Assembly: GCF_002854065.1 (NCBI RefSeq)
Contig: NZ_CP024147.1
From: Escherichia coli
Lineage (GTDB): Bacteria; Pseudomonadota; Gammaproteobacteria; Enterobacterales; Enterobacteriaceae
Strand: one strand, 5' to 3'
Length of the DNA: 64,000 bases
Below the pieces are notes generated by a model. That model saw nothing but the letters and a program-made list of their open reading frames with translations, was not told the origin of the DNA and did not search any database. Position numbers and translations under genes: made by a program. How positions within the stretch are numbered: position 1 is the stretch's first letter; each line of letters starts with the position of its first letter. Shown in pieces: positions 10,368 through 10,386 of this stretch.

Positions 10368-10386
10368 TATTTCCTCCATTTTTCCC
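10368..10386 (+). promoter_or_regulatory. Putative BaeR-box-like motif upstream of mdtA
   Basis: Sequence atttcctccatttttccc resembles the reported BaeR binding consensus TTTTTCTCCATDATTGGC, about 65-80 bp upstream of the mdtA start. Confidence 0.3.

Follow-up and report, generated by a model that had tools for sequence, protein, structure and literature searches.

The mdtABCD-baeSR operon and its surroundings

The DNA analysed here, called the window, is a stretch of 64,000 nucleotides from Escherichia coli. The mdtABCD-baeSR operon is read on its plus strand, and between the operon and the end of yegD at 10055 lies one copy of the sib/ibs locus. The following features were located:

10066-10094, plus strand: promoter-like site of Sib, found by a sigma-70 scan
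10066-10212, plus strand: Sib antitoxin RNA (Rfam RF00113, 150 bits against a gathering score of 56)
10138-10197, minus strand: ibs toxin ORF of 19 aa, MMRLVIILVILLVISLPAY, an Ibs family toxin in the identical RefSeq genome
10214-10239, plus strand: terminator-like hairpin of Sib
10450..11703, plus strand: mdtA, from the RefSeq annotation of the identical genome and above the NCBIfam cut-off; chimeric
11703-14825, plus strand: mdtB, above the NCBIfam cut-off
14826-17903, plus strand: mdtC, above the NCBIfam cut-off
17904-19319, plus strand: mdtD, above the NCBIfam cut-off
19316-20719, plus strand: baeS, above the NCBIfam cut-off
20716-21438, plus strand: baeR, above the NCBIfam cut-off

The ends of mdtA, mdtB, mdtC, mdtD, baeS and baeR touch or overlap, leaving no intergenic gaps up to 21438. 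The BaeR protein of the window is identical to K-12 BaeR at 239 of 240 positions, is matched by the PhoB and OmpR models, and scores as a response regulator of that family. Since baeS and baeR end the same operon, a BaeR site at the mdtA promoter would be autoregulatory.

A reading made earlier from the sequence only had proposed a BaeR box upstream of mdtA and placed it next to an Ibs/Sib locus. This neighbour was confirmed by the RF00113 match at 150 bits together with a short hydrophobic ORF on the opposite strand, the two components of a Sib/Ibs type I toxin-antitoxin pair. The description of the two loci as tightly packed holds loosely: about 130 bp separate the Sib terminator hairpin from the motif, and more than 100 bp of poorly conserved DNA come before the first conserved promoter element. 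In K-12, the interval between yegD and mdtA holds yegI-yegJ-pphC-yegL and two sib/ibs copies, where the window has yegD and then a single sib/ibs copy. An Rfam search of 9000-12000 returned no structured RNA besides Sib, and the idea that the conserved promoter block described below is a structured RNA was rejected, Sib being the lone match in that interval.

Identity to K-12 is 67-78% over the whole left part of the window and 99-100% from about 11200 on. Through a three-way sliding comparison, we found that the segment from 10040 to about 11100 is 83-100% identical to Kluyvera georgiana and 38-88% identical to K-12, and that the 130 bp 5' of mdtA are 100% identical to K. georgiana ATCC 51603. 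Judged by these identities, Kluyvera-like DNA was recombined into the E. coli chromosome and makes up the window from 1 to about 11150, the Kluyvera comparator covering 10040-11100. The mdtA gene is chimeric, Kluyvera-like to about 11150 and E. coli-like beyond, with the breakpoint at about 11100-11200. Because of this recombined segment the mdtA promoter differs from that of K-12, and an E. coli BaeR meets a promoter of foreign origin in which the conserved repeats are kept. This version is carried by 5 of 5,426 complete E. coli genomes.

Other differences from K-12 were seen along the way. In the identical genome CUWW06, the divergent tract spans at least 65 kb. It reaches from tsuA/plaP to the middle of mdtA and takes in the his operon, an O52-type wzm/wzt O-antigen cluster and the colanic acid genes. 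Between yegP and trhP, the stretch 21995-22776 has no K-12 counterpart and holds two adjacent 98-aa ORFs (22170-22764) that by eye look like a ParD/ParE-type toxin-antitoxin pair. In the gat operon region, a stretch of about 1.2 kb that is absent from K-12 includes a 326-aa ORF (30448-31428, minus strand) with the look of an IS5-type transposase, again by eye. Conversely, the window lacks two K-12 features, the IS3 in gatR and the PR-X prophage remnant.

A conserved block at a fixed distance from the mdtA -10 element

The proposed BaeR box had been placed at 10368-10386. Its sequence is present and only the start is off by one: atttcctccatttttccc occupies 10369-10386, where the plus strand reads ATTTCCTCCATTTTTCCC, with an extra T at 10368. 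The distance to mdtA had been called plausible, and this stands, the 3' end of the motif lying 64 bp 5' of the ATG at 10450 of mdtA, which heads mdtABCD-baeSR. The motif had also been said to resemble the published BaeR consensus. Against the 18-bp consensus of Nishino 2005, TTTTTCTCCATDATTGGC as quoted in PMC3799227 and PMC3915751, it scores 13/18. This is the maximum in the window, and it is tied with 21 other sites (22 sites at 13/18 or better in about 128,000 window positions); counting both strands, about 0.14 chance matches of that quality are expected in the 394-bp spacer between yegD and mdtA. The resemblance is real as a top score and near chance by itself, and a 13/18 match taken alone is weak evidence for a BaeR site.

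To describe conservation around the motif, we took mdtA loci, one genome per species, and compared the 170 bp 5' of the start codon in an alignment. The set comprised 74 distinct upstream sequences from more than 25 enterobacterial genera, with MdtA proteins 76-92% identical to that of the window. The promoter features are as follows:

10342..10349, plus strand: upstream element ATTCAGAC, conserved in the alignment
10363..10383, plus strand: conserved 21-bp block TTTCATATTTCCTCCATTTTT, proposed BaeR operator, from near-invariance in the 74 sequences and a mapped ChIP-exo peak
10363-10371, plus strand: distal half-site Z, TTTCATATT, with core TTCAT at 10364-10368
10369..10386, plus strand: the motif first proposed, ATTTCCTCCATTTTTCCC, spanning the tail of Z, half-site A and three further bases that are not conserved
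10373-10383, plus strand: proximal half-site A, CCTCCATTTTT, with CTCCATTTT at 10374-10382
10379..10396, plus strand: position orthologous to the K-12 mdtA box, reading TTTTTCCCGAGCGTTCCG, 10/18, degenerate
10398..10416, plus strand: core-promoter block TACTAAACTAGTATCATTT, invariant in the alignment, containing the -10 element
10406-10411, plus strand: -10 element TAGTAT, invariant, with an invariant C before it at 10405
10418..10421, plus strand: mdtA transcription start as predicted from the -10 position
10427..10438, plus strand: 5'-UTR block TTCAGGACGAGA, nearly invariant across genera

The results showed that columns 10363-10383 are 88-100% identical in the 74 sequences, two positions being two-state (Y and W), that columns 10384-10396 vary freely, and that near-invariance returns at 10397-10415. 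The final CCC of the motif (10384-10386) falls outside the conserved block, and the conserved upstream half at 10363-10368 had been left out of it. No indels occur between 10363 and 10417, and TAGTAT follows CCTYCAT at a distance of 33 bp in all 74 sequences. The conserved 21-mer occurs once in the window with up to three mismatches, against 0.01 occurrences expected. It is the conservation of 10363-10383 that lifts the motif above chance, and a near-invariant element at a fixed distance from the -10 element is the signature of an activator site. The possibility that the block is a functionless chance resemblance, which could point to the 22 window sites at 13/18, is highly improbable in view of the near-invariance in more than 25 genera, the fixed -10 spacing and the orthology to a ChIP-exo peak described below.

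Within the block, Z and A form a direct repeat of the form YTNCAT-WWTT with cores 11 bp apart. Nearly all of the 74 sequences have TTTCAT or TTCCAT as Z and CCTCCAT or CCTTCAT as A. The block has what a direct-repeat BaeR operator is expected to have, namely at least two T-N-CA cores in the same orientation with A/T-rich tails and a spacing of 10-11 bp. A pattern derived from the Z/A repeats and a repeat at the spy promoter, YTNCAYNWT-N2-YTNCAYNWT, occurs once in the 64 kb against 0.04 expected, a contrast to be read with the fact that this site partly shaped the pattern.

Downstream of the block, the sigma-70 scan returned the Sib promoter as its sole find and no -35/-10 pair at mdtA. The hexamer 17 bp 5' of TAGTAT is TCCCGA, and no recognisable -35 is present in 10379-10396. 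We read the missing pair as activator dependence and not as absence of a promoter. A -10 element, no usable -35 and a fixed distance to the operator are the marks of an OmpR/PhoB-type activator-dependent promoter, and all three were found here. According to EcoCyc as cited in PMC2731931, the mdt operon is sigma-S dependent, and the invariant C before the -10 element would fit such dependence. The 5'-UTR block TTCAGGACGAGA probably includes the ribosome-binding site; its conservation in the predicted mdtA 5' UTR extends beyond what a ribosome-binding site needs.

An open frame runs from an in-frame GTG at 10360 to 11703, and the same frame is open in K-12, which would allow the block to code for an N-terminal extension of MdtA. 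This is barely credible: an in-frame stop lies between the block and the ATG in 39/74 orthologs, the -10 element and the ATG are 42 to 51 bp apart without conservation modulo 3, the block lies in or upstream of the promoter -10 region, and the RefSeq start of mdtA is 10450. The block is also very unlikely to be a CpxR site. CpxR is reported to raise mdtA expression jointly with BaeR and to modulate mdtA and acrD in a BaeR-dependent manner (PMC2731931, PMC4846824), but GTAAA-N5-GTAAA is absent from both strands of the block, the nearest GTAAA (10328-10332) lies about 30 bp 5' of it, and CpxR ChIP-exo in MG1655 has no mdtA peak.

Two further elements were observed upstream of the block. The sequence CTCGTAAAG (10325-10333), which contains the single GTAAA, shows moderate conservation as CTCGYAAAG and may be half of a CpxR site; the second repeat 10 bp away is absent, as is a CpxR ChIP-exo peak at K-12 mdtA. 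In most genera ATTCAGAC is followed 10 bp later by a second CAGAC, at whose place the window has CTTCC; this region (10342-10361) lies outside the K-12 BaeR ChIP-exo peak.

BaeR occupancy in K-12 and the register of the published box

Positions of the K-12 genome were converted to the window by subtracting 2,143,566, the alignment being gapless from about 10342 to 10416. BaeR ChIP-exo in MG1655 (PMC7657598, Data Set S2) gave two peaks at mdtA, peak_5 at 2153931-2153967 and peak_6 at 2153972-2153998. The DNA of peak_5, TCATAATTCCTCCATTTTTCTCCCTTATTGGCTGGCT, maps to 10365-10401 through this gapless alignment, so that the block is orthologous to DNA occupied by BaeR in vivo. Peak_6 maps to 10406-10432 and begins exactly at TAGTAT, and it probably reflects polymerase held at the promoter. 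The autoregulation of mdtABCD-baeSR that had been suggested is supported by the gapless operon ending in baeS-baeR and by this orthology. We conclude that 10363-10383 is very probably the BaeR operator of the mdtABCD-baeSR promoter.

The K-12 mdtA promoter is the closest relative of the one studied here. It lies at the same position of the same gene, aligns without gaps from about -75 to +10, has an identical -10 element, carries two upstream repeats (TTTCATAATTCCTCCATTTTT) that are one base apart from TTTCATATTTCCTCCATTTTT of the window, and precedes the same operon, with BaeR 239/240 identical. In K-12, three units Z TTTCATAAT, A CCTCCATTTT and B TCTCCCTTATT follow each other at spacings of 11 and 10 bp, with GGC after B, and the published K-12 box TTTTTCTCCCTTATTGGC consists of B and its flanks. 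The difference lies here: the third repeat with TTGGC, most of the 18-bp box, is replaced by an unrelated CCCGAGCGTTCCG in the window. K-12 peak_5 is centred on the junction of A and B, with its left border within Z, and the K-12 BaeR dimer probably sits on A and B.

The known members of the 18-bp box are the copies at K-12 mdtA (TTTTTCTCCCTTATTGGC), spy (TTTTTCTCCATAATTGGC) and acrD (TTTTTCTCCACGATTGGC), which match TTTTTCTCCATDATTGGC at 17-18 of 18 positions. The window has no such close match at mdtA: the motif reaches 13/18 and the orthologous register 10/18, the TTGGC half is absent, and what it shares with the members is a position upstream of a BaeR-regulated gene, mdtA beginning 64 bp downstream. 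A semi-conserved GTT at 10391-10393 lies within the degenerate register B. When the 74 sequences were scored, register B reached 15-17 in Escherichia and Citrobacter alone, the other genera giving 7-13, and register A scored 11-13 in all 74. By this alignment, the flagged element is the upstream neighbour repeat, more deeply conserved than the published K-12 box 10 bp downstream and not its ortholog.

Evidence from the spy promoter bears on the recognition sequence. The upstream spy peak of BaeR ChIP-exo in MG1655 (1825823-1825843, PMC7657598) reads CATAATCTCTGCAAAATCATC and lies within an 11-bp direct repeat, TCTTCATAATC/TCTGCAAAATC. This repeat fits the second published BaeR consensus (Yamamoto 2008), which PMC3799227 quotes as TCTNCANAA, and has TTCATAAT in common with the mdtA block; Z and A each match TCTNCANAA at just 4/7 specified positions. 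A literature search gave no further source on a footprint at the mdtA promoter or on TCTNCANAA. The spy repeat resembles the mdtA block in its 11-bp spacing, T-N-CA core, A/T-rich tail, TTCATAAT and ChIP-exo protection (at mdtA by K-12 orthology), and differs in lying about 200 bp 5' of the spy start codon and working with CpxR, whereas the mdtA block abuts the -35 position. Half-site A, CTCCAT with a T-rich tail, corresponds to the first half of the Nishino boxes of spy and acrD.

At the K-12 spy promoter (minus strand), the peak was on TCTTCATAATC/TCTGCAAAATC and not on the 18-bp box about 40 bp downstream. Both spy elements are kept in Salmonella and Citrobacter, and a three-genus spy promoter alignment was 84% identical throughout, with both candidate elements conserved alike; the best 120 matches of the underlying homologue search were almost all Salmonella.

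When the window promoter was aligned locally with the spy and acrD promoters of K-12, neither score was significant (reached by fractions of 0.07 and 0.20 of the shuffles, respectively), and the argument from a shared 18-mer therefore does not apply to the window variant, unlike the K-12 mdtA promoter, which does share the 18-mer with spy and acrD. In K. pneumoniae, a constitutive baeS mutation was also reported to induce mdtA (PMC13059784). In the three Klebsiella species that we examined (K. pneumoniae not among them), Z and A are kept and the 18-bp box is absent. BaeS-dependent induction of mdtA in K. pneumoniae, taken with the lack of the 18-mer in these three species, argues that Z and A suffice.

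These data bear on a different reading, in which the 18-bp box is the sole true BaeR site, the block is bound by another factor (the alpha subunit of RNA polymerase through an UP-like element, or another regulator), and the Kluyvera-type promoter is outside BaeR control. The 18-mer common to K-12 mdtA, spy and acrD is indeed missing here, the T-rich block occupies -35 to -55, the usual place of UP elements, and the K-12 ChIP-exo peak spans the 18-mer too and cannot separate the two elements. We consider this reading unlikely, since the invariant core is CCTCCA and not the A/T-rich run of an UP element, the CTCCAT core also makes up the first half of the boxes at spy and acrD, the spy peak falls on the repeat containing TTCATAAT and not on the spy 18-mer, and Klebsiella mdtA is still BaeS-inducible (PMC13059784), the species examined lacking the 18-mer.

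A comparable operator is known from another response regulator of an RND pump. DzrR has a DNase I footprint on CGGTTCTCCATCATATCTCCATATT, with two CTCCAT repeats 11 bp apart (PMC10052836). The operator, at the desAB promoter of Dickeya/Burkholderia, resembles the mdtA block in that TTCTCCATCAT/ATCTCCATATT lie 5' of an RND operon and the hexamer equals the core of half-site A (PMC10052836). It belongs to a different regulator, reported to be phosphorylation-independent, and to other genera, and the likeness concerns the operators and not homology between DzrR and BaeR.

Proposed control of the operon and its meaning

The regulators of the OmpR/PhoB type bind as head-to-tail dimers to tandem repeats on one helix face and activate promoters that lack a -35 element. 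The comparison with PhoB-type class II promoters rests on this established knowledge of the family. The pho box has, like the mdtA block, tandem repeats of about 11 bp at, or replacing, a missing -35 and a fixed distance to the -10 element; it differs in its recognition sequence, and relative to a typical pho box the mdtA repeats are shifted about 10 bp upstream, unless BaeR occupies the degenerate proximal unit as well.

On the preferred reading of the block as a BaeR operator, it would sit at about -55 to -35 of the predicted start, beside a promoter without a usable -35, and phosphorylated BaeR would bind 10363-10383 and recruit or position RNA polymerase. With baeS and baeR last in the operon, the circuit would be self-amplifying. 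A third repeat, with TTGGC after it, lies 10 bp downstream in Escherichia and Citrobacter and is the published box. Because the third repeat is absent from the Kluyvera-type promoter, BaeR must rely on Z and A here, where either a dimer may occupy Z and A or A may anchor a dimer whose second, polymerase-proximal subunit rests on non-consensus DNA.

We also put forward, tentatively and at somewhat below an even chance, that the 18-bp box at mdtA is an addition of Escherichia and Citrobacter, that the ancestral operator is TTYCATAWT-TCCTCCATTTT placed 33 bp from the -10 element in more than 25 genera, and that the BaeR of E. coli drives the Kluyvera-derived promoter of the window through that repeat alone. 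If this is true, the published consensus needs to be re-registered, and the strength of autoregulation may be altered in this E. coli lineage.

The site is a regulatory element already known from E. coli K-12, here in a variant promoter without the canonical 18-mer, and nothing about it is new in kind. The comparison indicates which bases are under constraint, namely TTYCATAWTTCCTCCATTTTT at a fixed 33 bp from TAGTAT, and searching with the published 18-mer would overlook or misplace the mdtA site in most Enterobacteriaceae; the value for annotation is modest. Tolerance of drugs, metals and envelope stress is known to be inducible through the control of mdtABCD by BaeSR, and the foreign promoter gained by recombination would keep the element needed for control by the resident regulator.
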